From Amphiscolops sp. MND2022 (Eukaryota), in the NCBI GenBank assembly GCA_964187785.1, contig OZ076412.1:27032001-27096000 (forward strand): 64,000 bases of DNA. The letters are read 5' to 3'. Positions 5,801 to 29,800 of this stretch are shown here, piece by piece. How positions within the stretch are numbered: position 1 is the stretch's first letter; each line of letters starts with the position of its first letter. Under the pieces are notes generated by a model that searched no databases, was not told the DNA's origin, and saw nothing but the letters and a program-made list of their open reading frames with translations. Position numbers and translations under genes: made by a program.

Positions 5801-8800
5801 ACATCCATTCTTTTGATGTTTTTGAAGATTTTAAAAAATTGAAGGGGGACTCTTTAGAGACATTGAAAATTTTCGGAAAAAGTCTCACAAAGCCGAAAAA
5901 GAGGGGAAAGTCCCAGGAAGAAGGTTCCTAAACTTCCAGAACAGGATTTGGCTCTATAATCTGAAAGAAAATCCTAAATAGGAAGTAGAATAATGTTATG
6001 AAGAGTACATGTGTGTTTGTTGCAGTGAAGAAGAGCAAAGAGAGTCTGGTGAGTGTGACGGGGGCAGGGGCCAAGAGCAGCCAGGAGGACATGTCTGCGG
6101 AGGAGCACGAGGCCAAGATAGCCGAACAGAAGCAGAAGCAGCAGGAACTCATATCAGGTACCAGCCAATGTGAAATGAAAATGTGTATGTAGTAGGCCCA
6201 TGTTCAAAGAAATTGACAAATTCTTTTCTAATCTGAAAAACCTAGGAAATATTTTATACTTGTTTGGTTCTTAGCAGAATACTGAAGCGACATTGACGCG
6301 GGCTGTCAATTTTTGGCTCAGTTTGTAAAGGTTCGATTGGGTTTAGGAGAAATTAGCCTTCTGAGATTCTTGATCAATAGTGTTTAGGAGTTAGTTTGCG
6401 ACTATGCCGCCTCACTGGTCGCACCAGTTTGTAAAGGTTCGATTGGGTTTAGGAGAAATTAGCCTTCTGAGATTCTTGATCAATAGTGTTTAGGAGTTAG
6501 TTTGCGACTATGCCTTCCTAAACCTTTACAAAAGTTGTCTCTAGGTCTTCCGAGTTCGCAGGAAGGACTTTGTTTCGAGAGAAGAGTTTGAATATATGAA
6601 AAGAATTTGAATTAGTTCGAGTATTATATTCAACAATGTTTGTTTTTACACAATACGCAAGAATACAATACAAACAAAATAATGTAATCATCCAAGTTGA
6701 CACAAATATCCAATCAATAATATCTGAATTGTTTAGCATTCACCACAAATAAATACATCAATTATTTAGGGAGCAATGTTCAGGTAAGTTGTGTAAGTAC
6801 TATAAAAACTGGAATTTTCTGATCTTATTGTCCAACAATTTGGTTAGGACAAGTGTGCTGACTTTTGACCAGAATTACAGTCTATTCAGACCGGTTTGGG
6901 GTTCCTAGAGTTCTCAACAATGTAGTGAGAGTTACTAAGTCTATTGACAATTTACGTGACAGGTTTGTCACACGTTCTAGCTTATAGGAAGCGAAGAACT
7001 AGCTTATAGGAAGCTGAGAGTTAAATAAAATAGTTTTAGCCTATATGACCAGCCAATTACTAGGTCGAAGACAGGATTGTCTTGAGCATAGACTTATAAG
7101 AAGTCTTGCGAATCTAAGTAAATTAAGGGTCTTATCTAACCAGCATTCGCTAGGTTTTTGTTCGGACAAGATTGCCGATTGGGCTCGATCCAGAGGTTCG
7201 GTGCCGTGTTCTAAGAGTTTTAACCTATTGCAATGGACCAGCAAGTTTGCTAGGTCGAGAGGAAGACAAGTTTGTCTAAAGACTTTGAAGAAGTCTTGTG
7301 AGTCTAAGTGAGTTAAAGGCCTTATTTCAACCAGCAGTTTGCTAGGTTGCTTTTTAGACAAGATTGTCAGAATTCTGTTCAATACTTTATAAGGTTACAT
7401 GCATTTTACTTTTTAATCAGTTTGTTTTACTTGCAAGTTAGCTGCAGTTATTGAAATGATCTAGACTAGCAGTCGCTAAGTCTTGACGCAATCGCGTACT
7501 AAGAGGAAAGTGATCTCCGTCGAGAATTGTTTGGGAGCGTTTAGCTCTAGTTAGTTTTCCCTATGATTTTCATAGGAGAACCTTGTCGGTTGTTTGTCTC
7601 TTCAGTCACTAGGACTGGGGGTTGTCTATAAAAGACAGGTAGGAAAAGGGAGCAAAGAAAAAAGAGAGAAATTTTGAGTTGTGAATTTTGAAGTTATTTT
7701 CTAAGTTAAAGAAAATAACTAACCTGAAGTTTGAAGCAAAGATTGGGTCGGAGAGATTTGTTCTCGCAAGAGAGAGATTTTTTTGAGAGAGATGATTTAT
7801 AGCAGAGGCGAAGAGGAGAGTCAGAGTGAGAGTGTGTGAGAGATTTATGCGAGAAAATTATGAATCAATTTGCTAGAGTCCGGCTTTTTTATACGAGCCG
7901 ACCGAACGGTACAACCAATCAAATCGATTGGCGTTTTTCATTGGATACGAAATTATTTCGTCATTATCTCGTCAATATTTTGTCCATAATTGGAATCGCA
8001 TTCACTATTGGATGCAACCGAATAGAAGTCGGCGGGGATTGCATCAGCTACCGAATATGTTCGGCTAACCGAGTTGGCTGACGCAACTCTTTGTATTTGT
8101 CAGGGGAATTAATCCTCTCAAGTGGGGGACTTTGTTCCCACTTGAGAATTCTTTTTGTTTAAAATTGAGAATTTGGCCGTACAAGTGGCGCCTATTATTC
8201 TCTTTTCAGAGATATTTACTGGCACAAGTGGCGTCGCATATTGTCTTTTTCAGGGGAGATAAAAGATAATTGTTTGCACAAGTGGCAAGCGTTTTCTTTT
8301 GTAGAGGGGAATTCTCCCTTTCATATGACGCGCAGCTGTAATTTTGTTTATCTCTAAAATTCTTTCAAGCGTGCCTGGAGAATTGAAAGAATTTGAGTAA
8401 GAGTTCACAAAAATTGAATAAAAAAAAATTCTAGCTCCGATTGAATAATTTTCTAAATATGTTTTTTTCAAATATTAAATTGAAGAAAAAGTTGTGTTAA
8501 ACACAACAACTCACCCGGGGTTTAAGAATGATTAAGTTGAAAGGGGGGCATACAGGGTATTTATGACTTTTACTTCGAAAAATATGGAATTGTTTTTTAG
8601 CCAGGGGTTCTCTGGGTTCATGAGTTCATCATGTGGGATGAAGCACAAGATGGTGATTGCTGTATTGCTGGCTGTGGGAATAGGTTTCTTGAAGCACTCA
8701 CTGTTGTTGTTATTCGTCACAATGAGCTGTTTGTAGGGTTTGTAAATATTGCCTTGACCAAGGAGGTGTATCTCGATAACGCCTTGGAAGGGCCAAGTGA

Positions 8801-11800
8801 GTATCTCATCGTAGGGTCCCGGACACATAGCCAAGCATACTGACATGTATTTCCCTTTGGCAGTGTCGATGCCATAAGGATAAGCTCGTAGATGAAAGGT
8901 GTACCCAAAGGGTTGTGAGAAGAAGATAGGGCTACAGACGTCTTTTAGGCAATTAGGATCACAATAGGGTGCTCTTACATGAGACAAACTTTTTTCGTAT
9001 TTTTCAGCATTCTGAAAAATATCAGAGAATTGATCAAGCCTCCAAATAACTTTGTAGAGGTTCCAATCCCGTGGAATTGATTTCTTTTCGATACGAAGGA
9101 CTCGCATCTCAAGTGCGTCGAGCTTTTTACTGATCTCGTGTATCATATCAGAATCAAATGTGTCATCTTTATATTGGGTGATATTGAGTTTTTGTCGAAG
9201 CAATAGTAACTCATTGATTAGGGAGTCCGTAAGGGACCTCTCATCTTCCAATTGTTCAATAAGGGTAGATGAGCTTGTGTTCATCCTGATAGGTCGTTCT
9301 GAAATTCAATGGAAAAGACTTTAAATAAATGCTGAAATAGCTCTAATAGGTACCACAATTCTCTGGTAGCCTAGGGTCGGATTTTCCAATGTAAATTCTT
9401 GACGGTTAGAATCCCAGAATACAATATTCCAATGATTATATTCGCGTTTCAAAAGATAATTTAATTCGGTCCGGAATCGTGGGTTCCTGGTGAAAATATA
9501 TTTATTAGCAGCTTCCTCGTTTTTTCGTTGTTGTCGTAGTTTTTCGTGAGCCGAGAGGGAAGCTTTTTGCCTTTTGTGAGAACGCTTGATGGACGTTGAA
9601 TGAGGTCGTTTAGTGGGTAGAGGTGTTGTTTTTAAGTTGTTGGGCGGAGGAGGTGGTGCTGTTTCAGTAACACCTTCTGCAATAGTTTCCGTTGAGAGAA
9701 ACTCTAAATCTGTTGGGGAAAGCAAGGGGAGATCAAGTAGTCCGCTGTTGTCGAGTTTTGGTTCACCTGTTAATAACTCGATTTCTTCAGCCACAGTTTT
9801 GTCGGTTTGCATATTCTGAATACTAAACATAAAAAATACAATTACACTGGAGAAACAGTATGGGTATTCGAAGTAGGGGGCCTACTTATGGCAGGGTAAA
9901 TGTGTTCGAGGGTTTCGTGCTCATTGTAATTTTTGTCTGGAGGGGTATCTGAGACCATTGGGTCATGTTGGGGAACTTGATTAAGTGTTGATATCATCGA
10001 AACTGTGAATAGATTGTAGGTTGCTGATAGAAGTATTTTGCCAATACCCCAAGAAGCTCCTGTAACTCGGTGTAGTTCAAATGAGCGAAATGTTATAACA
10101 ATCACGTTGACCAAAAACTTGATAAGAAGAAATCCACCAAACCACTGTCCCAATTTGCTAAACCAGTATTCGATAATACCAAAAGTGCTGATGAACTGTT
10201 CCTTGAAATATCCTGGTGATATCATGTTATCCACATAGAAATTTGTACGTGGTGCAAAGTAACCAAATTCGTCTGGTCCTTTGTCGGCAGCCGAAGGTAT
10301 AATGAGTTCTCGTGAAAACTTTTGCAAAGCATTCCTCGAAGCCGCGCTGATCAGAATATTGTCCCAAAAATCGCTGAGTTGTCCTTTTGTGTACATTCCA
10401 GCATCTTGAGACTCATCGAAAGCATCTTTTGTGAAAGGAGAAATCTCTTTCGGACCGAAGATAGCAGGTCTATCTCTATGTGTAGGCTCTGGATTCAAAG
10501 AAAACCAAGAGTCCTTGTCCTGCATATCTAGTTGAAAAAGGTTCTTTATTCTGTCTGTGCAATTTTGGGTATTTGCGTTGGGGTAGGTTTGTCTGGTGAT
10601 GGGGTCTACGAATTGAATTTGTCCCTTGTAGAATATGGGTATTTTGTCATAACAATTGTTCATGACATGAAGAGGTGATGAAATCAGTGGGCATGAATAG
10701 AGCCAGGCGAGACTACCATCAGTTTCAAGGAACATGGATCTATTTCCAGTAAGCATGTATCCAGCAAGGCGTGGATTTTCCAAAGACAGCATTAAAATAG
10801 TTAGAATTTGGGTCCGTTCCTGTTCGCACTGGTTTTTCAACATTTGAATTTCGGAAGATTGCAGTGCTCGGGTGCTTTCGAAGAACAGGTAATCCAGTTT
10901 TGTTCCAACTTGCATTTCATAATCCATGTTGAGCCAAGTATTAACGTACTTGTCTTTAACTGTGGCATCTCTGTTGTACACGTAAAGTCCAGGTTTCCCA
11001 GAATTGTCTGTGGAGTATTGGAGGGTATAAGATCCTCTTGTTATCCCCATCTTTCTTCCGGAAGCCATGTCAAATCCACCGGTATGTATCACAATGTACA
11101 TGGACTCGTAATTTGTGGGATATACGTCGTTTGGTTTGTTGCAGAATTTTTGAGGGTAGTTCTTCACTTCGAACAAAAATTTGGAGGAAGAATCGTTGGT
11201 GCTCACCATGTGATACCTGTGTTCATTCTTTATCATATTTACATGTTCTTCTTTCAATACTGAAAGTACACAGTTATCAGGGTGATCCCAAATATAGGCG
11301 TAGGGATCCAAGGATGTGCTTTGGCAACCCAGATCGTCAAGTTTGCATGGGAGAGGATTTCCATTTACATTGTGAACTGTTCCATCTCTCAGCTTGACGG
11401 GTAGTGTAACATCTTGAATGTGACTCTCAAAAGTATCTTTGATCATCCAAGACCTTCCAGTGCAATGGTTTCTGTTTTCTTCGCTCTTCTTTCCATTCGT
11501 ATAGGACTGAGTTAGTTTGTTTCCCTTTTTAAACTGGACCATGTGATCCAATATTTGTATCTTTCCCTCTTCTCGTGCTCTTCGACATTGTTCGGGGCTC
11601 ATATCGATATCGCTAGTTATTGTACTTTGTTCTGCATCGATACTCGCATGGTCATGATATCCACAATGCCATTTGAATCTACTGTGCTTTAGGCGGCACA
11701 TAGTGGCATTGAGTTCTGTACGAAAGTGCTTCGTGTAGACAGTGATTATGGCTGGGTTGATTTCAATATTTTCTGGGGAAACGTGGCAGGGTCTCACTTG

Positions 11801-14800
11801 ATTGAGCGCATATAATTTGTTTTCGGTCATTTCTCCACAGTCATAATGCGATACACTAAGCCTTTGTGCGATGTCATCCAGGTTTGGATTGGGGAGGCCA
11901 TTGATTAGGGAGTAGCACGTAATGAATAATATCAAAATTTTACTGCACATTTTGGAACTAACTGGGAGAAATCTTAGGTGTTTGCCAGAGCTCAGTTTTC
12001 AGCAAACTGTTAAGAAAAAATCAAAAAGAGGAAAGTTAAACGGTAGCTTGCTAACCGAGAGTTGGTGGAGTCGAATTTGACAACCAGTTAGAATCAAATT
12101 GATTCTATTGTTGAAGAATGTTCTTCAGAAACGAGAGTTGGTGGAGTCGAATTTGACAACCAATTAGAATCAAATTGATTCTGTTGTTGAAGAATGTTCT
12201 TCAGGAACTGAAACGAGACAATTATTGCCTAACGTTTTCAACCAGGGTGAACACCGAATTTGTATTTGGTAGCTTGCTAACCAAAAATAGGTGTAGTCAC
12301 AGTGATCACTGCTTTAGATTTGAGATTGGTGCACAGGTCTATGGATTGAAGATTTCAGTGTCTGGCTCAATTGATAGCCGTTTTCATAAGTACTGAAAGT
12401 ACACTCTGTTATCAGAAGTGAAGTTATGGAATTTGGGATTTGAAGTGAAAGTTGAGAAAGAGGATCGTAAAATTTTATTTACCAAACAAAAATTTATTTC
12501 AAAACGGAAATGAGATGAAATTTACAAATCATAAAACTGGATAAGATCCTTGTACAATTTGCTATATTTAGGTGAAGTGACACACTCAATGTCCATGACA
12601 CTGGTTAATTCACCTAACACAAGCAGATCAAATTTGGTGATGTGCCTTTCAGGCTTCTGTTCGTATGACAGGAGGGAAGCGGCTAGTGACGCGTATAGAA
12701 GGGTGTCCTTGTAGATTTGTTTCTGATACTTTTTGTCAGGCAGGTCGTAACGTTCAAAGTGAACGCAAATCTTGAATTCGTAGGTCCAAGTCCACCGAAT
12801 ATAGGTGATCAAAAATTGTTTGTTGTTTTCAGCAACGAAAATAGTCCAGGGGCAATTGAAACTGAGTTCTTCGTACTTTTTCTCCCAGAGGGTATCCCAG
12901 TAAATAGTAGGAGGAGGATAAATTTGAGTAATCCTCGGTTTTGTTCTTTTGCGTGAGTCTTTTTTGAGAATAGACTGTGGGTTCATTAGAGATGGTTGTT
13001 TTCTCCTCTGAACAAATCCGAAGGTATGTCTCCCACAAATTTCATAAGGTGGAGAAAATAGTCCCAATATACTGAATGTTGATCTACAAAAACAATATCT
13101 TTTTTCGAGGTGATGTAGTGCTTTACATAGATATAGATTCTGTCTTGATGCAGCTCAGTTCTATAGATCCGGTAGAATTCGTTTTCAATTTTGATGTAGG
13201 TCATACGACGAACTGAAATAGTCAAAAGTTTTTTACCCACGGCAGAGATTGATACTATGATCGTTACCGTGCTGAAAAGTTATTTACCCACGGCAGAGAT
13301 TGATACTTTGATCGTTACCGTGCTCGTTTTTGTGAAAAATTCTTTACCCACGGCAGAGATTGATGCTATGATCGTTACCGTGCTGAAAAGTTATTTACCC
13401 ACGGCAGAGATTGATACTTTGATCGTTACCGTGCTGAAAAGTTATTTACCCACGGCAGAGATTGATACTATGATCGTTACCGTGCTGAAAAGTTATTTAC
13501 CCACGGCAGAGATTGATACTTTGATCTTTACCGTGTTCAATTTTGTGAAAAAGTTATTTACCCACGGCAGAGATTGATACTATGATCGTTACCGTGCTCA
13601 ATTTTGTGAAAAAGTTATTTACCCACGGCAGAGATTGATACTATGATCGTTACCGTGCTCAATTTTGTGAAAAAGTTATTTACCCACGGCAGAGATTGAT
13701 ACTATGATCGTTACCGTGCTCAATTTTGTGAAAAAGTTATTTACCCACGGCAGAGATTGATACTATGATCGTTACCGTGCTCAAGAATTTCTGAAACGAA
13801 GGACTACAAATTAGTTATCAGTTTACGTTAAAATGACAATGAAGAGAAGAGAAAAAGAATTTTGACAAGAAGACTTTTATTTACAATATTAGAAATCTTC
13901 CATTTCCTGCCACAGCTTTAGAGTTTCAAGGAAATCAATGTACATATCATTGTAGCTCGATTTTTTACAAACATTGTCCATCTGGCTAGAGATGGTGTTG
14001 AGAGCGTCGACTTCTTGTTTTGATAGCTGTGGTTCGGGTTTCCTCATGAACGTTACTAACGCCGCAGTGAGGGACGCATAAAGGAATGAACCGGGTTTGA
14101 CCCATTTGTGGTATTTTTGTTTGGACCGGTAGTTATGGAATTTAACTTCTACATCAGCAGTTGGGTGCCAACTCCAACTTAGTTCGTCGATGATCATCGA
14201 GATTTCTTCTAATTCGGGCATGATATTCCAGGGGCAGCATTTGAAATTTATTTTGTTTATAATCACAATAGGGATGTCGTACGCAATGACAGGCTTCATC
14301 TTTGGTTGGCTTGGGCTGAAGTTTGGTCAAAATAGATACTAAAGCACGAAAATGCTGCTTGACTTACTTGGTAAAATTTAAACAAATTTTACAATTGCAA
14401 GAGCTGGATTTTTCAAAAAGCAAAATTTCATACTATTGTTTTTGTTCTTTTCACAAGGTTCTCCTTTAACAAGGCTTTGTCTTGTTTTCTTTTGTTTGTC
14501 TACTTCTTTTGTTTCCTTTTGTAGTCTTTATTGAATAGATTCTTGCATTCTTTTGTTTTCTACATGCTTTTGTTGTTACATGCAGTGGTTCCTTTTGTAA
14601 ACTCCTTTCAGTTGTTGACTTTTGTTTTTCGTTTTCTATGGTTTGCATCACTGGCTTTCATCGGCTTGTTTTGTAAAGATCGCGCTTTTGTTGTTGGATA
14701 ACGGCGGGTGCCATATGTGTTTTTGAAGTATAGTGTTGAAGTTAGCTTTGTATTGAATGCGCTTTTGTTATGGTTCAGTTCTTTTGGTGCCATGTGTTTT

Positions 14801-17800
14801 CGAGTGGTTTGAAAAGTTGTTTGTTCACAATGTGCTTTTGTAATGGTTCAATTCTATGGACGCCATGTGTGTTTTTGAAGTGGTGGCCCAAATTCGGTTT
14901 GTGTTGAATGCGCTTTTGGATGTTATTCTGATCTCTTCACATTTACAAGTAAGTTCGGTTTTCATTTTCAACTTTTGCTTTTTCTTGAATTTTTGGTAAC
15001 GTGTATATGACACGCTCGACCGCCGAAAAAGAAGTAGAGAAAAAAGTTTGAGCCATATGGTGGTGAAGCTTGGAGAGAAAGAAATGAAAGAAAAACAATT
15101 TTGAAGAACGGAGTGGAAAATGGGGGAAATTTTTAAACGGCATAAGGGGGGTGGTGAAAACGAAATTTGAGGTTGTAATTTAGTTGCGTTTCTTTAGGCT
15201 GTTTAGTACACGATGAACCGTTTGCCATTTTCTACCGCGGATGATGCTTATCTGGCACCAGATCTTTTTGCGGATATGCGATCATTGGTGACTGATTTGG
15301 AACTACCAATGATGGCGGGGACGACAGCGGTGGGCGAGGTGTTGCGACGCCCAGAACCACTCCGGAGAGCAGTGAGATTGGCGTTAGGCGAGCACGTAAG
15401 TTGTTGAGTGGTGTAACTTTTGAAGCTAAGACATTGTGGAGAAGAGATTTTGAATTAGTTCTTAGCACTAAGAGTAAAAAGGAAATGGAAAGTATTGTCT
15501 TTAGCTTCGATTGTATAAGTTCTGTAGTTGCAGTTTCTAAGTACGATAAGGTAAACAGAGACGGAATGTTTGTGAAATTAATGTTTTTGTGTATTGATTG
15601 CAGTTTGTTTTAGTGGAGATCGAAGCTACAGTCCGGAGCCAAGGACGTTTGGATTTTTAAACTAAAAGCCATTGTACGGGGATGGGAGATGACTGCTCCA
15701 CAAGATCGGCCGGACATAGCCCGACGGCTGGATCGGAGTCAGTTTTTTCAAGTGCTGCAGGACTTGGCGGAGTTGGGGGGATATATGGTGTGCCTCTGCG
15801 CGGGGCATCCTAAGCCGCCTCCAAATGGGGCGACTGTTGTCCCTGCCGAAAGGGAAGATTTATTATAAACTTTTGTTTATATTGTAAATATTTTGTTTTT
15901 GTGTTTTTATTATTTTAATATTATTTTTGTAATACTTCTGTTTTGACTTTAAATTGTAGGTTGAGAAGTAAGAGAACGTTTTTGACAGTTATAATTTCTA
16001 AAAGTTTAGCTAGAGGAGAAGGATTAGCTAAAACTTTGAGGAATCGCCTCCGTGGAGGCTTGTTGATTAAAACATCAACAATCACAGTGCTATCTATTCC
16101 AGGCAGTTCGACCATTTAAGGCGAACCGCCATAGCACAATTTTTCTTTGTAGTTTTTGTCTCTTGGGGAGACTTGTTGGCGAAAAACCGTCAACAGTCAC
16201 AGTGGCATCTATTCCACGCAGTTCAACCATTTAAGGTGAACCGCCGTACCACAAAATTTTTGTTAACAGAGTTTGTAATTAGGTGATATAAAAATGTCAA
16301 ATTTTTTGAAAAGACAGATGATCAAAAATCCCGATCCAAGAAGTTGTAGGTAACAAGCATGTGTACTGATTACAATTTCCAATAAGGCTGGGGAATTGTC
16401 CAGTGTTATTCGGGGCCAAAAAAAAGGACCGAAGAATTTGGGATTCTGAAATAAGGGTTGACACAATTTTGTACACAATTAAGGTTTTTTATCGGGGGGT
16501 AATTCTGTCCCTGTGCCTCATGACGCAGAGAATGGTGTGTAGTATCCAAATTATGTAGAGCTAGTGTTGTGAACTGAAAAGGTAGATCAGGATTTTGGCG
16601 GGACTTAGTATTAATTGATGTAATAAATGCTAGTGTTATCATTTATTTTTTAATCTTTATAGCCTTTTCTCTCAATGTCTCGGAGGGAACTGCCAGGGGT
16701 GCTTCGTTCGTATTTGGGGTTTTTGGGTTTTTCGGAAAACCGTGTAGTTACCTTCTTTTTGAAGTTAGATAGTTTTCCTGTTTTTGGGGAAACTTGATCA
16801 GGGGGAGACACTGTGTGGATTGGAGGAACGGATGGGAGAACCGGTGTTCTCTTGGGTAGGGGAGTGTTAGAAGAGAATGCGAGTGGTAAGACTGCCACAG
16901 GGAGACGTGGTGTTTGCATAGGTGGAAGTGGATTTGTTCCACAGCTTTGAGGGATACGTTCCCTTAGAATGGAATTGTTAGACGTAGATGGGATCGGGGT
17001 GTGAAATTGTGGGGTTTTCGGAGAAAGGATTCCAGAATCGGTACTGGGGGAAAATTCAGAACCCTTAGAAGTATTGTTATTCGATCCTGAAAGTGGAGTG
17101 ATAATGAGTGGCATAAAATCTAGTTTATGCTCAGGTTGTCCCGAGTTGTGTTTGTCAATTTGAGTTTGGACCAAACGCTTGTAAAAATTATCGTCCTGTT
17201 CTACAGGAGCGTAATTTGTCAGCAATGGGGGTAAAGTTTCCTCTTTGGGAAAATACTCTAGTAAGTGGTTTCGGTGAGTTACTTTAACATTTTCGGGGTT
17301 CTCATCTTCTTTAATCTCGTATGTGGTATTGGTTATTTGTTTTGTTACCGTGAAAGGTCCCACTCGTAATTGTTTCAATTTCTGTGATTTGGATAGGTCG
17401 GGTTTGTGATTCTCCAATAGGACCTTTTGACCAACCGCGAGCGGTCGTCCTAGTTTGAAACGGTTCCGATACTCATGAGCTTTCGATGTGATCTCTCTAC
17501 ATCTTTTGTAGGTAGATGAGTATATTGATTTGAAGTCGTTTTCTCTTGTAAGTAGTTCGGAAGATAACTGTGGTCTAAGGAGTCGATCGAGGGACTTGTT
17601 TCTGAGGTTATTCTCACTATGGGTGTGAGGTTGTAAATCTGCACAAAATTCTGATTTACATTGTTTGTTTTTGTCGCGAATTAGCCCAAGTTTCAAAGTC
17701 ATCGGTATTTGAGGTTTGACGCCGAAGACAATCTCGTAGGGGGTCATACCCGTTGTGTAATTTACGCTTGTGTTATGGGCAAAAGCGAATTTAGATGCAA

Positions 17801-20800
17801 GTGTTGACCAGTTGTTTCCTGACTCGTTGGTGAAATTCCTCCAGTATCTCATGAGGTGTTTGTTTTGGACTTCAACTTTGCCATTTGTCCAGGGCGAATA
17901 AGCAGTGCGCGGTGCCAGCGTTATTCCGAACTCTTTGGTCCAATTTACAAAATCGCGGTTGATAAACGCTGAGCCATTATCGTGGACAATTTTTTGGGGA
18001 ATGCCGTAGGATGTGATCCATTTTTCTAGGGCATTGATTGTGGTCTGAGCTCCTGTATCTCGGACCGGATAGACTCCAAGAAATCTTGAGAATGCATCTA
18101 CTACAACTAGACAATGTGTATTCAGGTTACTGCTTGGTCTGATGGGACCTTTGTGGTCGATATGGATTGTTTTGAAGGGGGTTGTCTCGAGTTCGCCCCA
18201 TTGTTCAAGAGGAGCTTCTTGTAGATCGTGTCGTTTAGACTTGTTAGTCTGGCATTGTAGACAATCTTCTATCAGGGATACTATCCACTTATATCGTCCA
18301 GGCCAAAAGAAATTTTGTCTGATGTTTTCGAATGTTTTAAATATGCCTGGGTGGCCACTGTGAGTATGAGCGTGGGCCAGATTAAAGAGGGGTAGGAATA
18401 ATGATAAGGGGACACAGATTTTCATTTCGCATTTGTCCGTCCCATGAATAGGTTCGTTATAGCAGAGTAGGTTGCTTTCTTTATCGAGAAAAAGTTGATT
18501 GAAATTGTTGAAGTACGACAGCAAAGCCTTCGATTGGTGAATCTCTGGTGTTTTGGCGTTCGGCTTATTCTTGTTTCTAACCCAAGCTCGTACAATTTGT
18601 AATACAGGATCGTTGATTTGTTCTGCAACTAAGGTGGTGATGTCCAAATCAGCGGTTTTAGAGTAATCGCTGAGTTTTTGTAAGAGGTCTTTGGTATCAA
18701 CGTGTGGGAATTGCTCGACATCTAAATTCTTGTTCAATAGAGGCCTTTCACTTTTCTGTGAAATGTTCTTTTCTTTCGCAGTTGATTTATCGCGATAGAA
18801 CTCGTGATCTTCGTTGGAAAGGTGAAGTTCGGCGATTTCCTCTTCATCGTCACTGGAATCGGTTTCGATGTCGTCTATTCTACTATACTCGGGTTCATAC
18901 TGTATTTTGTATGAGGGTAGACAGAGGTTTTTGTATTGATTGATGGATTTTCCCAGTTTGAAACAGTCAGCGATGTCTTGGCGAGTCGCCATTACTGTTT
19001 GTTGGTTCTCATAGTGCTCTACTTCATGTTCTTCTCCGTCATTCTTGAGATGGAGTAGCCTTTGATCTTTGCCTTTTTGGCAGAGGATAGGGAAAAAGTC
19101 ATTGCTGCCACAATGACCATCGTCATTATGCTCGATTGCATAGTGTACTTTCGATCCAAATTCATCATAGAAACTGATATCTCGCGGTATTTCTTTGTGT
19201 AGTTTTTGTAAGTTTTGGGTTTCTTCCAGCGTGACATTTCTACTAAGTATGTCTGGGAATGCGAGGTTGGATCCTTTAGTCCAGATGATTTTGAGGTTTT
19301 GGAACTTGGTGATGATTACCTGATACTTGAAAAAGCGATGTGAAAGCTGTCCTTTTCTTCCCCAGAGGTATAAAATAGGTTTGTGATCGCAATAGAGGTA
19401 TATTGGAAATGGAGATCCAATAATGTAGTGTTCGTATGTTTGGAGTGCTGATACTATGCCACACAATTCGCGATGAAGGGTGGACATCTTTTGTTCAGCT
19501 TTGTCAAATACGCGGGAATTGAAAGAAACTATCCTTTTTCCTTCTGGAAACTGTTGAACTAGTATACAACCAGTACCAACGTTCGAAGAATCGACGTGTA
19601 TGTGGAAGGGGTACTCAGTTGAAGGGACAGCAAGAATAGTGTCCTCACATATACGACTTTTTATATCAGTGAAGAGGTCTTCGTGTTCTTTCGTCCATTT
19701 GAAAGGCGTTGTAGCTTTTATCAAATCGTAGAAGGGCTGGCTATCCACGTGTAAGTTTTTGATATAGCAACTGTAAAATCCAAGACAGCCAAGTACTTTC
19801 ATCACATCTCTTTTACTTTCGGGTGATTTTAAGTTTTTTAGATCCTGTACTCTTTTTGCTAAGGGTTGTATTCCTTGTTCAGAAATAACATGTCCTAGGA
19901 ATTTGACTTTCCTGATGAAGAAATTCGTCTTCTCAGGTGCAGCTTTAAGTCCGGCTTTCCTCAGGAGCTGATGGTACTCATGAATTATCGTGAACATTTC
20001 TTGTTTGGTCTGAGCCTGCATAAGACTGTCATCAAGATAGGTGATAGCTTGTTTTCGCTTGATGAGGGGCTCAAAATGTATAGCCATGAGACGGCTAAAA
20101 AAGTTTGGAAGTCCACAGAGTCCGTAGAAACCACGTACATACGTGTACTGTTTTCCGCCGATAATAAAACTAGTGAGTTTTTGGGTCTCGTCGCTCAAAG
20201 GTACTTGGTGATATGCGCAGGATAAATCGCTGACCGTGAAGTACTTTCCGTTAATCCGAGTCATAATCATCTGAATGGGATCCAATGGCCATGAGTAATT
20301 TGTCAGATCTGTTATGGAATTTAAGTAGCGGGCGTCGATTACTAACTTTACGTAGTCTGCTTTGGGCATCAGAATGATCGGATTGACAAAAAGGGAACCT
20401 AGTTCGTCATCGTCTCCCATTTCTCTAATGATATCGGCTTCTTGGAGTTGTCCAAGTAACTTCTCAAGTTTGTCCTTCAAGTGAAGGGGTACTTTGCTTG
20501 GTCGTTGTTTCTTGAGTTCTGAATTGGCTTTGAGTGTTACGTGAAATTTTTGACGTACTTTTCCCACGTCGAATTTGTGTTGCGAATACACGTCTGCTGA
20601 GTCAATAAGCATATCTATTAGGACAACCAATTCTTCATCTTGGAGGTCAGTATATCGGAAATCGAATTTTTTCACATATTCCTTGATTTCTTCACGCTGA
20701 TATTGGAGGTAGTATTCTATCAAAGCGTCGTTATCTTCTTTTGTTCTAAGTTCAACAAATTGTTCTGTACAGGGTGGCTGACAAGATTTAGCGTCCGTAG

Positions 20801-23800
20801 CAAAATCTGTTTCAAGTTCTTCAGTACCATTAGCAAATTGTTCTGTATAATAGTCAATATCTCCTTCTTCTACTTCTTCTTTTCGTATGGAAGCGTTAAC
20901 AAGTTGGAGGTTCGGTTCGTTTCGTGATACGATCTCGACTTTAATATGTCCATAATCGAAGCTGTTACGGATTATGTCCAAAGCTCCTTTCCAGTGGATG
21001 TTATCTAAGCCATCTTCAATTTTGGGTATTGAAATTGCAGGTATATTGTTTAGTTGTGCGTGTCCAACCAAATTTTCGATGCAATTGCGAAAATCTTCGG
21101 GTTTAATTTTTTCGTAACATCTCTTTTTTGCAACTAGTCCATAGATGAAGCGATTGGCTTCGTTATCCCAAAAGGGTAAAACTGATCCGACGAAAGGTTT
21201 CGACTGGTTCACGAAATTCTGAAAATCTTTCTTCTGTTCGCACAACCTTTTTGCGAACGTGGTTGTCATTTTTCCATCTGCTGAGACACAAAAGGCTAGA
21301 TTTGCATTTGAGGCTCGAAGGGTCTCGCCGGAGCCGTGGCTTAGAAAAACTTGTTGATCTCCTTCGTGTTCGAAGGGAACTGTTGAGTGTAGCAAGAAAC
21401 AGTCGTTGTAGTCTGGGTTTTCCTTTAAAATTGTGTTGACCATCGTGACACAATCCTTTATCTGGAACTTTGGTCGTTCTTTTTCCTGTAGGTCTATGAC
21501 AGCATGACCAATTATTCCTCTATTAAGGGTTATTTGGTGATTTCGATTATTTTCAATCAAAATTGGCAGGTGGGATTCGGACTTCGTACATAAAACATTC
21601 ACAAAGGTAAGTCCTGTTTTGACTGCATTTTTGTGGGGTGTGAATGATGTTCCGGGTGCAAAATGTCTGTTATTTTCGCGGGAGTACTTGTGTAGGCGGG
21701 TAGTTTTGGCATCGATGCAAATTGGGTTATCTGTTCGTATTGTTTCGACCTTTGAAACGTACGGGAAGGGTTTGGTAGCACAAAGGTTACCGTAGCAAAT
21801 CGTGTTAGGACTGTCTTTCAATTCGATTGCAGGCAAATCAAAATGTAATTTAGAAACAAGTTGACGGCAGAAATCTATTCCCAGTAAATTGGGTGTCTTC
21901 GCTTCTGTTATCCAAAACTTTAGCTCTACAGGATGGAGTCCATCCGAGTCGAAACTGAATGTGATTGTTGTTGATCCAAGCATCGGTATAACTTCGCCAG
22001 TATAGGTTTTAGTCAGCTGTTTGCTCCTGACTACCGTGATGGGTTGTCCAAACTGTGCAATTTCCTCAAAAGCTCTGTAATTGATGATTGAACAGGCTGC
22101 TCCTGTATCTAGCATGAATTCTATTTCTAACCCACTATCTTTTTTGGAGTCTCCGGTGGGAAAAAAGAAGAGATTTAGGTGAAAACGTGATTTGAGGTTA
22201 CTTTCTTCGTCAGGTCGCGGAGACTTTAGCAGTTTAAAGGGTTGAACGAGATTGTACTAACTCTGTCCTGTCCTTCTTCGTCAATGAACTGTACGGAGTT
22301 TGGGAAACTGTTATTGTTGGTTGGGAAATTTCGGTTGTACTCAGAATTTGTGTTTTGTGGTCGTGCACTGAAGTTATACGGGCTATTTGGCCTATTTCCA
22401 GTATAGGGTGTATTGTTTCGCAAATTGGTACTAGTCGAAGTTGGTCTACTACCTGAAGAGTGATTGTTATTGCCACTGAAGTTGTTGAAGTTGTTCGACT
22501 GCTGAGGATTATTTCGGTTCCAGTTTTCATTTCGATTGTTCCCTTCGTTAGGTCTGCCTCTGTTGAAGTTTTGGTTCGACTGTTGGTTGCTTCTTTGATT
22601 ATTGGTGAAGTTCGGTCTTGGTGAAGACTGATAATTTTGTTGTGATCCAAATCCGGGTCCCTTCCGTTTGTTGTAGTCGTTGGTGAAGGTGACCTTCTTC
22701 TCTTCATTAGCTCGTGATTGTGCTCTCTTGGCTTCGTCATCGTAGATCTTCTTTCGGCAATATTGGAGTGTATGACCATTCCTTTGGCAATATTTACAAA
22801 ATCGTGTGATGTTTTGGCGGGACGTGTTATTTACGTCTACTGCAGAGACGTGATAGTCATGACAGTGAGAGGATGGGCATCCGTAGGGTAGGGAGTTAGT
22901 TACAGCTAAAGAGTTGATTTGTTGTTCTTTTAGCATATTCTTCATTGCGTTGATGTCTTCTCGTAGTTCGTTTATCAACGTTTTTTGGTTTTGTGAGGAG
23001 TTCGGAGCTAGTTGAGAGCTGATAGTAAAAACAAGGTCTTTATTAGTTACGTGTTCCTGAAATTGTTCCCAAGTAGCGTTGGGGTGTTCAATTAGGTATT
23101 GGTGAGCCTTGTTCTTTAGTTCGTTGGGCGTTAGTCCTCTGACTGCAAATTCAATGTACTTTTGCCTTCTTTGAGCGTTCAGTGCAGCTCTAGCTGCATT
23201 ATCAGCATTTTCTTCGTCTGGCCATCCTCTATCGACAGCTCGTTTCACTCGGTGAAAGTAGTTCTTTATTATTTCTTCATTCCCTCTGACACTGTTTTCT
23301 GCAGTTATTCTGTATCTGTATTTATCTCTATTGTCGGAAAAGCGGGTTAGGAAATGGGTTCTAATATGTTGCCAATCGTGTCCATCTCCTATGTTGTCTG
23401 TATACCACTCGGCGGCAGGTCCTCTTAGTAGGGATGAGAAAAGTGCTTTTTTGCGAAATAAGTATCTTGCTCGATCGTCATCATTGTCGGGTTCATGGCC
23501 CATCGAGAAATTGATTTTGTTCTCAACAGTTGTGAGAAATGATCTGACATCTTGTTCGGGGTCGTTTCCTGAGAATTTGTCCAAAGCGAGGTCGGGAAAT
23601 GAAACTGTGTTATCTGCCATTCCTCTCTTTTGCTTGAATGTGCCTCACTGGTCGCACCAGTTTGTAAAGGTTCGATTGGGTTTAGGAGAAATTAGCCTTC
23701 TGAGATTCTTGATCAATAGTGTTTAGGAGTTAGTTTGCGACTATGCCGCCTCACTGGTCGCACCAGTTTGTAAAGGTTCGATTGGGTTTAGGAGAAATTA

Positions 23801-26800
23801 GCCTTCTGAGATTCTTGATCAATAGTGTTTAGGAGTTAGTTTGCGACTATGCCTTCCTAAACCTTTACAAAAGTTGTCTCTAGGTCTTCCGAGTTCGCAG
23901 GAAGGACTTTGTTTCGAGAGAAGAGTTTGAATATATGAAAAGAATTTGAATTAGTTCGAGTATTATATTCAACAATGTTTGTTTTTACACAATACGCAAG
24001 AATACAATACAAACAAAATAATGTAATCATCCAAGTTGACACAAATATCCAATCAATAATATCTGAATTGTTTAGCATTCACCACAAATAAATACATCAA
24101 TTATTTAGGGAGCAATGTTCAGGTAAGTTGTGTAAGTACTATAAAAACTGGAATTTTCTGATCTTATTGTCCAACAATTTGGTTAGGACAAGTGTGCTGA
24201 CTTTTGACCAGAATTACAGTCTATTCAGACCGGTTTGGGGTTCCTAGAGTTCTCAACAATGTAGTGAGAGTTACTAAGTCTATTGACAATTTACGTGACA
24301 GGTTTGTCACACGTTCTAGCTTATAGGAAGCGAAGAACTAGCTTATAGGAAGCTGAGAGTTAAATAAAATAGTTTTAGCCTATATGACCAGCCAATTACT
24401 AGGTCGAAGACAGGATTGTCTTGAGCATAGACTTATAAGAAGTCTTGCGAATCTAAGTAAATTAAGGGTCTTATCTAACCAGCATTCGCTAGGTTTTTGT
24501 TCGGACAAGATTGCCGATTGGGCTCGATCCAGAGGTTCGGTGCCGTGTTCTAAGAGTTTTAACCTATTGCAATGGACCAGCAAGTTTGCTAGGTCGAGAG
24601 GAAGACAAGTTTGTCTAAAGACTTTGAAGAAGTCTTGTGAGTCTAAGTGAGTTAAAGGCCTTATTTCAACCAGCAGTTTGCTAGGTTGCTTTTTAGACAA
24701 GATTGTCAGAATTCTGTTCAATACTTTATAAGGTTACATGCATTTTACTTTTTAATCAGTTTGTTTTACTTGCAAGTTAGCTGCAGTTATTGAAATGATC
24801 TAGACTAGCAGTCGCTAAGTCTTGACGCAATCGCGTACTAAGAGGAAAGTGATCTCCGTCGAGAATTGTTTGGGAGCGTTTAGCTCTAGTTAGTTTTCCC
24901 TATGATTTTCATAGGAGAACCTTGTCGGTTGTTTGTCTCTTCAGTCACTAGGACTGGGGGTTGTCTATAAAAGACAGGTAGGAAAAGGGAGCAAAGAAAA
25001 AAGAGAGAAATTTTGAGTTGTGAATTTTGAAGTTATTTTCTAAGTTAAAGAAAATAACTAACCTGAAGTTTGAAGCAAAGATTGGGTCGGAGAGATTTGT
25101 TCTCGCAAGAGAGAGATTTTTTTGAGAGAGATGATTTATAGCAGAGGCGAAGAGGAGAGTCAGAGTGAGAGTGTGTGAGAGATTTATGCGAGAAAATTAT
25201 GAATCAATTTGCTAGAGTCCGGCTTTTTTATACGAGCCGACCGAACGGTACAACCAATCAAATCGATTGGCGTTTTTCATTGGATACGAAATTATTTCGT
25301 CATTATCTCGTCAATATTTTGTCCATAATTGGAATCGCATTCACTATTGGATGCAACCGAATAGAAGTCGGCGGGGATTGCATCAGCTACCGAATATGTT
25401 CGGCTAACCGAGTTGGCTGACGCAACTCTTTGTATTTGTCAGGGGAATTAATCCTCTCAAGTGGGGGACTTTGTTCCCACTTGAGAATTCTTTTTGTTTA
25501 AAATTGAGAATTTGGCCGTACAAGTGGCGCCTATTATTCTCTTTTCAGAGATATTTACTGGCACAAGTGGCGTCGCATATTGTCTTTTTCAGGGGAGATA
25601 AAAGATAATTGTTTGCACAAGTGGCAAGCGTTTTCTTTTGTAGAGGGGAATTCTCCCTTTCATATGACGCGCAGCTGTAATTTTGTTTATCTCTAAAATT
25701 CTTTCAAGCGTGCCTGGAGAATTGAAAGAATTTGAGTAAGAGTTCACAAAAATTGAATAAAAAAAAATTCTAGCTCCGATTGAATAATTTTCTAAATATG
25801 TTTTTTTCAAATATTAAATTGAAGAAAAAGTTGTGTTAAACACAACAAGTTGTGTCTCATTCTTCATCGAAAAAGTTACTTTTATCTTTCTGAGTTCAAT
25901 TCATGTTCTTTGAAATTAAACTACAAGAATATTTTATCCAATTACAGTGAAAGATATTGTTCAAGATCTCGAAATAGCGTGATATTTCTACCAAAGAAAC
26001 CTTTGAAGAAATTGAGAAATACTTTAAGGTTGCTTCTGTAATTTTGAACGTTGTTTCTGCGGAGGGGTACATCGATGTTGAAATCCACAAAGGGAGTCTT
26101 TTCAGATGTATAGAAGAGAATGTATACTTCACTGACAGTAAACTCGGATTTTTTACTTGTTTGTATTTAATGAAATCAGTAGTCACAAAAATTTTTGATT
26201 GCACCTTGCTGGGCTTCTAATTAGCGAGAGGTGTTGTTTCATTTCCATGTAAGGAAATACATGTATTGTCATTCTAATTCGTGATACTATTTTTGACCGA
26301 ATGCGTTCATTTTAAAATCAGCCTATATTTGTGTTTGTACTTATTTACACTCCCTTTTCCCCTAGTCTTCTCTACCTCCCGAGCATCTATAAAAAGAAGG
26401 AAAAACGACCTCTTTCTCTATTCAACTCAATCGTCGTCGACGCAAATTTCAATTTAATCCCATTTTCTCCTTCGTTCCGTCTTGTTTTACGGTGACGTAA
26501 ATGTACATCCATATTTGTCGCATCGGTTTCGCTTTCGTGTCGTGATTAGCGGCATTGGTATTAGCAAGCTTAGCCGATTTATGAAGTAATTGGCTTTGGG
26601 TACACCGAAAAAGTGATAGTATTACGTCATTGGGGTTGGATGACGTCAGCAAAGGATGAATGGGATAAAGGAAGGAATGAAAATAGAATTGTGAGTGGGA
26701 GAAATTCCCCAGAGTTGAAAAACAGTGAAATGAAGTGGATGCTAAGGTAGAACATCATGGAATGGTGACGTCACGTACTTCCACATCACGAATTGAGTGT

Positions 26801-29800
26801 GGCTCTCAAAAGCAGAAAGTTGTGACACAAATAGCATTGATTCACCTCAAATTGAAGATCTTGGAATTCTAAAGTTATCAAAAGATGCTGTAAAAATATT
26901 TCACATCTAATAAAAGACAGTTTTTGAGTTTATTCTAGCAGTCAAATAAAACTTAGCTGATGACTGGCAGGATTTTGGTGGTGGAAAATGAGAAATTTTA
27001 AGTGGGAAAAATTAATTAATTAATGTACTTTTATACGCATCAAACAATTGGAGAATGGTGTTTTGCACTACAGAGTACAGCATAGAAATGTCTCTGGTAT
27101 GCTGAAGTTGACTTCAAACAGGTTGCCTGATTTGAAGACGTTTTCACAAAACGTTGCAACTGAAACCCTCTTTGCCTGAAAGAACCCATCTGGCCCAGGA
27201 CAACTTGCTGTCAGTGTAGGGAGGATATCGGAACCTATGGTTGGCCCCTTCCACCAATCGTGTGGGTACCTCCATACAAGACTTACCATGAGAAAAGGCA
27301 TCAAAGGAGAACTTGCCATGGTAGCAGCCGGTGCCACTTTCTCCCACGCCACCGAAGGGCAAAGAAGGCAAGCCTCCTTGTAGCATTGCGTCATTGGCCA
27401 CAAACATACCACAAGTTGTAGAATTGCGCCATGCATCAATGGTTGACTTGGCGTTTGTGAAGACGTATAGACTCAATGGTTTGGGCTTGGTCTGCACAAA
27501 ATTGATGGCCTCGTGTAGACTCTCCACTGGCATGATGGGCAGAACTGGCCCGAATATCTCTTCCTGCATACACTTCTGACTTTGTTTGGCGTTTGTTATA
27601 ATTGTAGGACTGATGTACCGCTTGCTTTTGTCACGTCCTCCTCCATAAAAGATTTCCACGCCGTCTTCCGTGAGAAAAGATTCCACTCTGTCGAAATGTC
27701 TTTCGTTGACTATCTTCCCGTAATCTGGCGAGCTTGATGCATCGCTGGTGTAAAAGCTATCGATTACTTCCTTCAGCTGATTCTTGAGCTTTTCCTGAAA
27801 TTGAAACATGAGTTGATGCCATATTTAGGAAAAAGAAATGTGAATTAAGAATCGGTATAAAATATACGTCGTTCAAAAATAGAATTCCAAAAAACTGTAC
27901 ATTTCTAATGATATGACCGCAAGTTTTGATATCCTATTCTTTTCTGTTTATTTCATATACATGAAAGACATGGAAAGTGACATGGAAAACCATATTTAGA
28001 AGCTTAATTTTTAAAAATAGCCAGTTTTTGCTCCCCCTAGTATGGCGAACTATTCTATGCAAATAATTAGTGTATCTTGGTTTTTTTCTAAAATACCAGA
28101 AACAAAGGCAATTTTTATTCATTTGCTTGTAGAATTGATTTGGTTGAGGATTCAGACTAATTGATTAGTTCAGTTCGAGGTGGAAAACACAAACCTGCAT
28201 TTCTTTTGAGCACAATACGTAATCAGGGGCAATACAAGTCTGTCCACAGTTGACCAACTTGGCCCAGGCGAGTCTATTAGCTGTTATGGTGAGATCTGCA
28301 TCATCTGCCACGTATACTGGACTTTTGCCTCCCAGTTCCAAAGTAACGGGCGTCAAATATTTGGCAGCCGCAGTCATAACTATCTTTCCCACGGGCGAGC
28401 TTCCTGTGTAGAATATTTTGTCAAACTGCTGCTCCAACAGAGCCGTGGTCTCTGGTATACCCCCTGTGACGACTTTGAAGCATTCCTCGTCTAAGTACTT
28501 AGGTACCAGTTTCTCGATAAGCTCCGCAGTGGCTGGTGCCATTTCTGATGGTTTCAGTATTGCGCAGTTACCGGCTGCGATGGCGCCCACTAGCGGCAGG
28601 AAGGTGAGCTGCACAGGGTAGTTCCACGCGCCAATGATCAAAGTGACCCCATAGGGATCTTTTTGTATATAGCAAGACATGGGTTTGTACAACAGAGTTT
28701 TGGAAACATACTCAGGTTTCATCCAACTGCTAACGTTCTTCACGGCATGCTCGATGTCTGTTTCGAGGATATCGGTTTCAAACAAAACTGCTTCCGCCCT
28801 GCATTTGCCCAAATCTTTTCTCAAAGCCTCCACGAAATCGCTCTCATTTTTGGTAATGAGTGTTTTCAAGGCCTTTAGTTGATCTTTTCTGAAAGATTCA
28901 GTTTTCGTGCGCCCGGTTAAGAAAGCGGCCCGCATAGACTGTACCAGTAATTCCATATCTTCTTTCATTGCTAGGATGCTAGCTGATGTTGTGTGTTTGA
29001 ATTGGTATGAAAGCAAGAAAGCAACTAGTTTCAGACTTGTGAGACTAATAAACTGAGTTCTACGCCAAAGTACGATCACAGGACAGAAAATGTACGTCAA
29101 CTAAATAGTATTCTGGTGCTATTTTAAGATACACTGAGATGCTAGTTTCTATTGCTTGGATATTTCTCACTAACAAGAATTTAATCTACTGAATATTTGC
29201 AATCAAATCTACAGCTGAATGCGATCTAGAGAGTCAATGGCTAATGCCTTCGGCACCACTTCTGTCTGATTTCATTATGGTATCATTTGGATGCTTGCAA
29301 AGTGTGCATAATCTGCGGACTTTGTTTCATATTTTGTAAAGGTTTTATTTCACATCAGCCCAAGAGGTCGTTCCAAATTCAGCTGATCGTGGATAAGGTC
29401 GTTAGAAGAATATTTGGAACTTTTCAAAACTTCATTTTCAGCTCTGTGAGTAAATGTTCTGAGGATAACCTCAATGAGTTCGAAATATGCAGTTGAAGAT
29501 TTTAAACGTGAAAACAGCCCAATTTTTTTATGATTCATATGTTGTATATTTTAAAATAAATTCTCAACCTTGCTCTCATAAGAATTTTTAAAATAGTAAT
29601 TCAAAACATATTCTTCACTTTTGGTCAAGAAAACCACTTGCTAAGGTTTTGAATATTTGTTTTTATGGGACCGTTATTAACACGGAATAGGCTCTGCAGT
29701 TTGCAGCGTATATGACACCCTATTTTTCTCAGGCATGGCCTCACTGCAACATGGGCATCCCGGACGGTTTCTTTTTCAACATGAACTGGGTTTCAGTACG

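Follow-up and report, generated by a model that had tools for sequence, protein, structure and literature searches.

Organization of the element and its 3' genes

The 64,000-nt stretch analyzed here (Amphiscolops sp. MND2022, assembly GCA_964187785.1, contig OZ076412.1, positions 27,032,001 to 27,096,000), referred to below as the window, contains an env-carrying Ty3/gypsy element with long terminal repeats (LTRs), which occupies 19.5 kb of the minus strand (6322–25848) within the fourth intron of a RUN-domain gene of the host. Its genes follow in the order gag, pol, open reading frame (ORF) A, a 72-aa ORF, ORF B, env, an orphan ORF and a TRAF-type MATH gene. The initial annotation of this locus had a single LTR donor joined to five alternative acceptors, one for each accessory gene, as in HIV, HTLV and foamy viruses. 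Splicing was deduced here from DNA alone, using the conservation of sites and genomic copies treated as fossils of spliced RNA. The evidence supports the view that splice acceptors subject to selection give access to the 3' genes. The copies record a splice across env that starts at an internal donor, as well as the use of the host spliced leader (SL) at an internal acceptor in a sister family.

The element is young: its 5' LTR (23661–25848) and 3' LTR (6322–8509), 2188 nt each, are identical, with 0 mismatches, and an AACT target-site duplication is found at the flanks. The gag gene (22226–23620, 464 aa, PF03732) is overlapped by the pol frame (16650–22256), which encodes reverse transcriptase, RNase H and integrase in that order and has a slippery-like site near 22241; the protease is recognized by its motif, without a Pfam match. 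Ahead of the 3' LTR, only a short G-rich run stands where a polypurine tract is expected, and the situation is similar in all families. On this predicted layout, the element was filed under Metaviridae, using the features given in the ICTV profile (PMC7879559). The family of the window (F1) has 34 full-length orphan matches at 97% identity or more in the genome. By env identity, the sister groups are F1b (95%), F2 (62%), and F3 and F4 (57–61%, counted over the aligned part).

Downstream of pol, all features lie on the minus strand. ORF A (136 aa; 13889–14317 with its acceptor AG at 14317–14316) is a paralogue of ORF B (31% identity, E 3e-15). It is followed by an acceptor at 13791, 90 nt below an AATAAA, and an ATG-free array of 51/61-nt hairpin units (13221–13791). 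The 72-aa ORF with its acceptor at 13213 occupies 12986–13214, and ORF B (154 aa, 12522–12986) has no acceptor, its start overlapping the 72-aa stop in TAATG. Two small exons come next, namely a 111-nt candidate (12282–12392) ending at the donor G/GTTAGC at 12281, and an ATG-free exon of 152 nt (12056–12207) ending at the internal donor 12055. The env gene (702 aa; 9842–12008 with possible acceptors at 12007, 11962 and 11958) matches the PF24664 Monjiviricetes fusion protein (E 1e-39), and the path from 12207 to its ATG is free of other ATGs. It lies within a 2233-nt intron (9823–12055, GTTAGC..TTTAG). The orphan ORF (163 aa from the ATG at 9812; 9321–9823), which has acceptors TAG at 9823 and CAG at 9816, matches no Pfam family and nothing in the Atlas. 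The TRAF-type MATH gene (250 aa, PF21355) with its acceptor at 9299 closes the series (8532–9300).

All five acceptors proposed earlier are present as YAG just before 14315, 13212, 11961, 9815 and 9298, at 16, 8, 11, 3 and 14 nt from the respective ATGs; the generalization that every 3' cistron has one holds for five of six, the exception being ORF B. In comparison, among the 204 other ATGs of the sense strand, 22 have YYYAG 3–16 nt before them (binomial P ~5e-5 to 4e-4), a test that is post hoc because its distance window was taken from the finding itself. The named sites are real, but the inventory had missed the donors 12281 and 12055 and the acceptors 13791, 12393, 12208 and 12007. A branch-like TTTTGAC motif, previously noted at the A and 72-aa acceptors, does occur at these two places and nowhere else in the internal sense strand (15,151 nt), but it is not conserved in F1b: none of 18 copies has it at the 72-aa site, where 5 lack its adenine, and none of 17 has it at A. 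Usual branch points lie farther from the AG than the 10–12 nt at which its adenine sits.

Hexamers AATAAA are located after pol (16647), ORF A (13881) and ORF B (12498/12479), each 73–90 nt above an acceptor-like site. The succession of AATAAA and, 73–91 nt on, TTTYAG was found in three places in the window and in all four places checked in F1b and F2, the spacing having been chosen after it was seen.

Genomic copies without the env intron

Three genomic copies lack the env intron exactly at its GT..AG ends: L123 in F1, L132 in F2 and L102/L103 in F3. Fourteen regions upstream of orphan ORFs were retrieved for their odd frame length or the lack of a listed env, and 12 of them show no splice. 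L123 is 96.5–98.7% identical to the window and colinear with it to at least 18710, lacking exactly 12055–9823, so that the internal donor (G/GTTAGC) is joined to the acceptor TTTAG at 9823. This loss is not a microhomology deletion, because the shared TTAG is gone. It also corrects the orphan acceptor, for which CAG at 9816 had been proposed: this CAG exists, but the spliced copy uses the TAG 7 nt upstream of it. In L132, the homologous env intron is gone. The chance that a random deletion ends in GT..AG is P 0.0028, or 4.5e-5 with a stricter motif. An env-spanning splice from the internal donor has therefore taken place in this clade.

Several candidates were rejected. Three short own-family copies with close LTR pairs (3 of 29) looked spliced at first but proved to be deletions whose ends are not GT..AG, one of them with a 14-nt microhomology, and a deletion in the orphan of L085 likewise has ends other than GT..AG. 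No fossil of the TRAF acceptor was found among 35 own-family TRAF matches, all but one of which adjoin an orphan.

A start-codon mini-exon in F3 and F4

In F3 and F4, the orphan frame opens at the TAG of the acceptor itself and has no Met, as seen again in 18 of 20 further copies (one has no match and one is broken). Such a frame has to be opened by a coding exon farther upstream, in phase 0; the LTR leader and the SL are both ATG-free. The sequence ATG-NNN-NNN/GTTAGT was found directly past the last cassette ORF in 4/4 of the first F3 and F4 copies and in 20/20 further ones; these copies also have a second phase-0 candidate within env, for which there is no fossil. A probe consisting of the mini-exon and a non-G base gave seven genome matches (control, two), six of them unrelated. 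The seventh is L102/L103, where the mini-exon is joined exactly and in frame to the orphan exon, followed by a whole 3' LTR. This F3 junction was thus predicted from the Met-less frame and found afterwards.

Spliced-leader sequences at an internal acceptor

According to the available text of PMC9911081, 30.2% of genes are trans-spliced in S. roscoffensis. The S. roscoffensis SL has 2836 matches in the genome studied here, arrays of SL genes (SL followed by GT) among them; of 30 loci read, 19 are such genes and 11 have the SL fused to other sequence. Two of 20 F3/F4 copies, L085 and L088 (both F3), carry the SL exactly at the acceptor of the first cassette, where the other 18 read TTCTCAG, and this SL-cassette junction has four exact genome matches in two places. 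The SL is therefore used at an internal acceptor in F3. In L085 (reverse strand, 2438–2525), the first 39 nt of the family's LTR are followed by a short gap and then by the SL and the cassette, a structure that possibly arose by a template switch from subgenomic RNA to genomic cDNA.

For the window's own family, the SL joined to the five named exon starts gave no genome matches. Among 100 of the 225 matches to the SL followed by A or C, inspected by eye, there is no element exon start, and none is found among the two matches to the SL followed by TWC or the 53 matches to the SL followed by HAW. No SL was detected in 18 F1b regions. L122, considered as an SL-element junction, did not align to the elements at that place.

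Hundreds of dispersed copies (L046–L056 and the list of SL matches) start with the full SL followed by non-GT sequence, many of them in recurring families, and some encode Cys-rich starts recalling LINE ORF1 by eye. SL-headed retroelements may thus be common in this genome.

The LTR promoter, donor and candidate polyadenylation signal

The promoter of the 5' LTR consists of an ATTGG box and TATAAAA (25227–25258; motifs at 25258 and 25232), 170 nt above the LTR donor and kept in F1b and F2; transcription would start near 25200. A TATA at 25140, from which the donor had been placed 73 nt downstream in the initial annotation, does exist, but it is absent from aligned F1b and is probably the wrong one. 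The R-region donor CAG/GTTAGT itself (25057–25062) is where it had been reported. It aligns with CAG/GTAAGT in F1b, where identity climbs just past it, and, matching U1 at 8 of 9 positions, ranks in the top three for the sense strand of the element. The same GTTAGT accounts for two of the eight donors in the 9-exon model of the host gene, RUNDC1, as had been stated. In all six F2–F4 LTRs, which cannot be aligned here, a pyrimidine-rich stretch devoid of ATG is followed by GTTAGT or GTGAGT as its first donor-like hexamer, although the starts of the F3 and F4 stretches were picked by eye and such hexamers are not rare. We consider it quite likely that the LTR donor is used. Downstream of it lies a candidate polyadenylation hexamer, ATTAAA (24751–24756), which is aligned with ATTAAA in F1b.

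The primer-binding site (23643–23659) starts with TGG at 23659, as in all of F1–F4, and has a second copy inside the LTR end (23749–23765); there are no tRNA genes in the window. The LTR end (23661–23850 and 6322–6510) contains a duplicated U5 piece with this second primer-binding site, the duplication being absent from F1b and several F1 copies. A 73-aa hydrophobic ORF inside the LTR (23857–24078), 85% identical in F1b, possibly encodes a small membrane protein, and F3 has an 83-aa hydrophobic ORF ahead of gag. An acceptor-like YAG was found 6 nt before the gag ATG in three of three F3 copies (L034 7670–7702, L040 and L043), about 1 kb below the primer-binding site, so judging by these sites F3 gag-pol may have a spliced mRNA of its own. 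The gag gene of the window is preceded by eight upstream ATGs and by no acceptor-like YAG.

Conservation of splice sites across families

For the TRAF acceptor, a YAG at -14, with CAG and TAG alternating, was found in 21/21 F1 and 18/18 F1b copies. The 72-aa acceptor is kept at -8 in all 21 F1 copies and in 17 of 18 F1b copies, the same figures as for the internal donor 12055, and donor 12281 is present in 19/21 and 15/18 copies, respectively. Among the 17 F1b copies with a match, the A acceptor stands at -16 in nine, is shifted to -6 in seven and is absent in one. A perfect donor at 14367 was dropped, as F1b reads ATAAG or TTAAG in 10/10 aligned copies.

The proximal AGs of env are less stable. 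Both are lost in five of 21 F1 copies, which retain the 12007 site, and F1b retains only a TAG at -7; with such variation among F1 and F1b copies, entry to env appears variable. The CAG at 11962, proposed as the env acceptor, is present in the window but missing in 5/21 own-family copies and in all 16 alignable sister copies, and this single site may be a chance match. The start of the TRAF gene also differs between families: its ATG lies 7 nt past the orphan stop in F2 and overlaps it in F3 and F4.

The hairpin unit of the array folds at -10 kcal/mol (without a shuffle control) and is kept between F1 (13221–13790) and F2 (L029 6965–7700) at differing positions, while F3 and F4 have a different repeat before env. 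In copy L021, the primer-binding site is joined straight to the hairpin array and both LTRs are retained.

Other features of the window and of related copies

The host RUNDC1 model comprises nine exons with 739 open codons, a terminal stop only and a RUN domain; its last intron (32834–33101) fits only with a GC donor. The host intron that holds the element also contains a nested two-exon gene, aldehyde-dehydrogenase-like by eye (27068–29100, minus strand). Two more repeat-bounded elements with long broken ORFs are located at 40061–45853 and 47247–54956. Among related copies, L029 of F2 has two or three tandem ORF B paralogues (5666–6883) and lacks A, and L038 has an F4-specific 176-aa ORF (6128–6658) with its own strong acceptor 6 nt before the ATG; the product is MATH-like by eye but has no Pfam match. 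A metagenome scan with env gave 12 pattern matches, 0 of them confirmed.

A probable layered splicing programme and its alternatives

We favor, as the probable reading, a layered programme in which entry from the LTR or the SL is followed by a second, internal splice and then by reinitiation. Transcription would proceed from the LTR, with the unspliced RNA serving as genome and gag-pol message. In the first step, an internal acceptor would receive a capped 5' end, whether through trans-splicing of the host SL or through cis-splicing from the donor in R. SL entry is observed in the sister family F3; in the family of the window, the acceptors of A, the 72-aa ORF, the small exons, env and TRAF would be the points of entry. 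The second step, recorded by the intron-loss copies of three families, joins the donor just upstream of env to the orphan acceptor. The intron would stay in the env mRNA and be removed from the orphan mRNA, in the manner of env and of tax/rex or rev in complex retroviruses; in F3 and F4, the upstream mini-exon would provide the sole ATG of the orphan. In the third step, later cassette genes would be reached by stop-restart, from the 72-aa ORF to B in the window and from the orphan to TRAF in F2–F4, whereas in F1 and F1b TRAF has a separate acceptor. The short mRNAs probably end at the AATAAA signals that lie inside the element, past pol, A and B. A regulatory role of the basic orphan protein and the hairpin arrays is speculative, and a simple Rev-response layout does not fit, as the env intron contains the arrays in F3 and F4 but begins downstream of them in F1 and F2.

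Several observations weigh against this programme. The A, 72-aa, env and TRAF acceptors are supported by conservation only. There is one intron-loss copy per family (in F1, one among 34 orphan matches), and of seven deletion junctions inspected, four are not splice-like; the fossils moreover prove that a splice occurred, not that it gave a main or useful product. Against 58 own-family copies in which the leader is unspliced, none has a non-G base after it; this blank is weak, because splicing at the LTR donor takes away the primer-binding site at 23659. Finally, no fossil among the matches listed joins the SL to an F1 acceptor, and probes ending in D miss some copies.

An operon-like arrangement, in which internal polyadenylation cuts the RNA, the downstream cassettes are SL-capped and the LTR donor serves mainly to bind U1 and block polyadenylation in the 5' LTR, is unlikely but fits the SL fossils at the internal F3 acceptor and the 73–91-nt distance between AATAAA and TTTYAG. 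It would also explain an LTR donor upstream of a conserved ATTAAA, since suppression by U1 is known in foamy viruses (PMC3694450, as far as its accessible portion goes). However, no SL junction was found for F1, F1b or F2 exon starts among the matches listed, and the spacing was selected after being seen. The SL is ATG-free, and the TAG at its end falls in the reading frame of the orphan; the F3 and F4 orphan therefore needs cis-splicing, at least there.

Direct splicing of one LTR donor to five alternative acceptors as the whole programme is more doubtful still. The donor has its strong U1 match and is kept in F1b, the five acceptors are enriched, and direct leader splices, which delete the primer-binding site, would rarely leave copies. 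Against it, the internal donor is documented in three families, SL junctions occur in F3, and an ATG-free leader cannot start the Met-less F3 and F4 orphan. The only junctions found use the internal donor (12055 in the window) or, in F3, the host SL, and B, as well as TRAF in the distant families, is probably read by stop-restart instead of through a separate acceptor. The initial annotation thus identified real acceptors and a conserved LTR donor, whereas its single exclusive donor is refuted.

Internal promoters that drive the 3' cassettes, with splicing as a local event, are very improbable here, even with precedents in the env genes of Oikopleura Tor3b/4b and in foamy virus tas/bet (PMC4402516 and PMC3694450, both in the parts available). 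A promoter with an outron would likewise yield SL-headed RNAs, and no role is assigned to the roughly 2.3 kb that separate A from pol; yet no promoter-like element was identified, none having been tested for, and the conserved LTR donor would be left with a polyadenylation role only. Chance matches in AT-rich DNA are scarcely credible: about 11% of ordinary ATGs have YYYAG at such a distance and a GT[AGT]AGT hexamer is expected roughly once per kb, but three exact intron losses, two SL junctions and the turnover of the A acceptor stand against chance, which is refuted for the orphan intron.

Relation to known systems

The layered programme finds its closest counterparts in Cer1, HTLV and the foamy viruses. 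HTLV tax/rex and HIV rev/tat/nef are expressed by joining a small upstream exon across env to a 3' gene, with a first exon that may contribute no more than the start codon. The acoel elements share such a second splice, which skips env and reaches an accessory gene at the 3' side, as seen from intron-loss copies in three families. We know of no SL trans-splicing in HTLV or HIV. The orphan, without a family or Atlas match, is only a candidate for a regulator. The env of the window, which we take to be class III-like, also sets the element apart from Retroviridae, as it matches only the PF24664 fusion protein and not retroviral class I Env. A Ty3/gypsy core with a class III-like fusogen is shared with the gB-type ENV elements of PMC13524379, whose main text mentions neither acoels or Xenacoelomorpha nor splicing, TRAF or accessory genes.

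The nearest precedent is Cer1 of C. elegans, also a Ty3/gypsy element in an SL-using animal, in which a multiply spliced mRNA for the accessory protein CERV exists beside unspliced gag-pol RNA and has been found with and without SL1 (PMC3315495 and PMC10309623, in the sections available). Cer1 has one spliced product and no recognized env. The acoel clade differs by its class III-like env, by six 3' genes with putative stop-restart cassettes, by the intron that spans env and, in sister families, by a mini-exon that carries the start codon. Foamy virus (PFV) has its major donor in R upstream of the polyadenylation signal (accessible text of PMC3694450), an arrangement suggested here by the conserved donor and ATTAAA; the acoel element is not a retrovirus by env type, and the likeness concerns this candidate layout only. 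The Oikopleura Tor elements are env-carrying LTR elements as well, with Tor3a env spliced from LTR RNA; Tor3b/4b use an internal promoter, and neither trans-splicing nor an accessory cassette is mentioned in the part of PMC4402516 available. In the literature searched, no description of splicing in this clade was found, most subscription papers and all supplements, which may bear on the point, lying outside its scope.

As a broader and tentative scenario, which we regard as possible but not likely, the acoel env-Ty3/gypsy clade would have evolved a programme like that of complex retroviruses independently, with the host SL in addition. After entry from the SL or the LTR, a Rev/Tax-like regulator would be expressed through the mini-exon spliced across env, the hairpin arrays would be its RNA target, stop-restart cassettes would end in a captured TRAF domain, and SL-capped subgenomic RNAs would be copied back into the genome by the machinery of the element, with L085 as a possible example.

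As a method for repeat-rich genomes, the structure of transcripts can be read, with no need of RNA data, from copies that have lost an intron or begin with the SL. Multi-step splicing to accessory genes is a mark of complex retroviruses and, among LTR retrotransposons, was found described for Cer1, with a single product. The acoel clade has six 3' genes, and one kind of RNA undergoes both cis- and trans-splicing there; this is relevant to the choice that an acceptor makes between the SL and a donor upstream of it.

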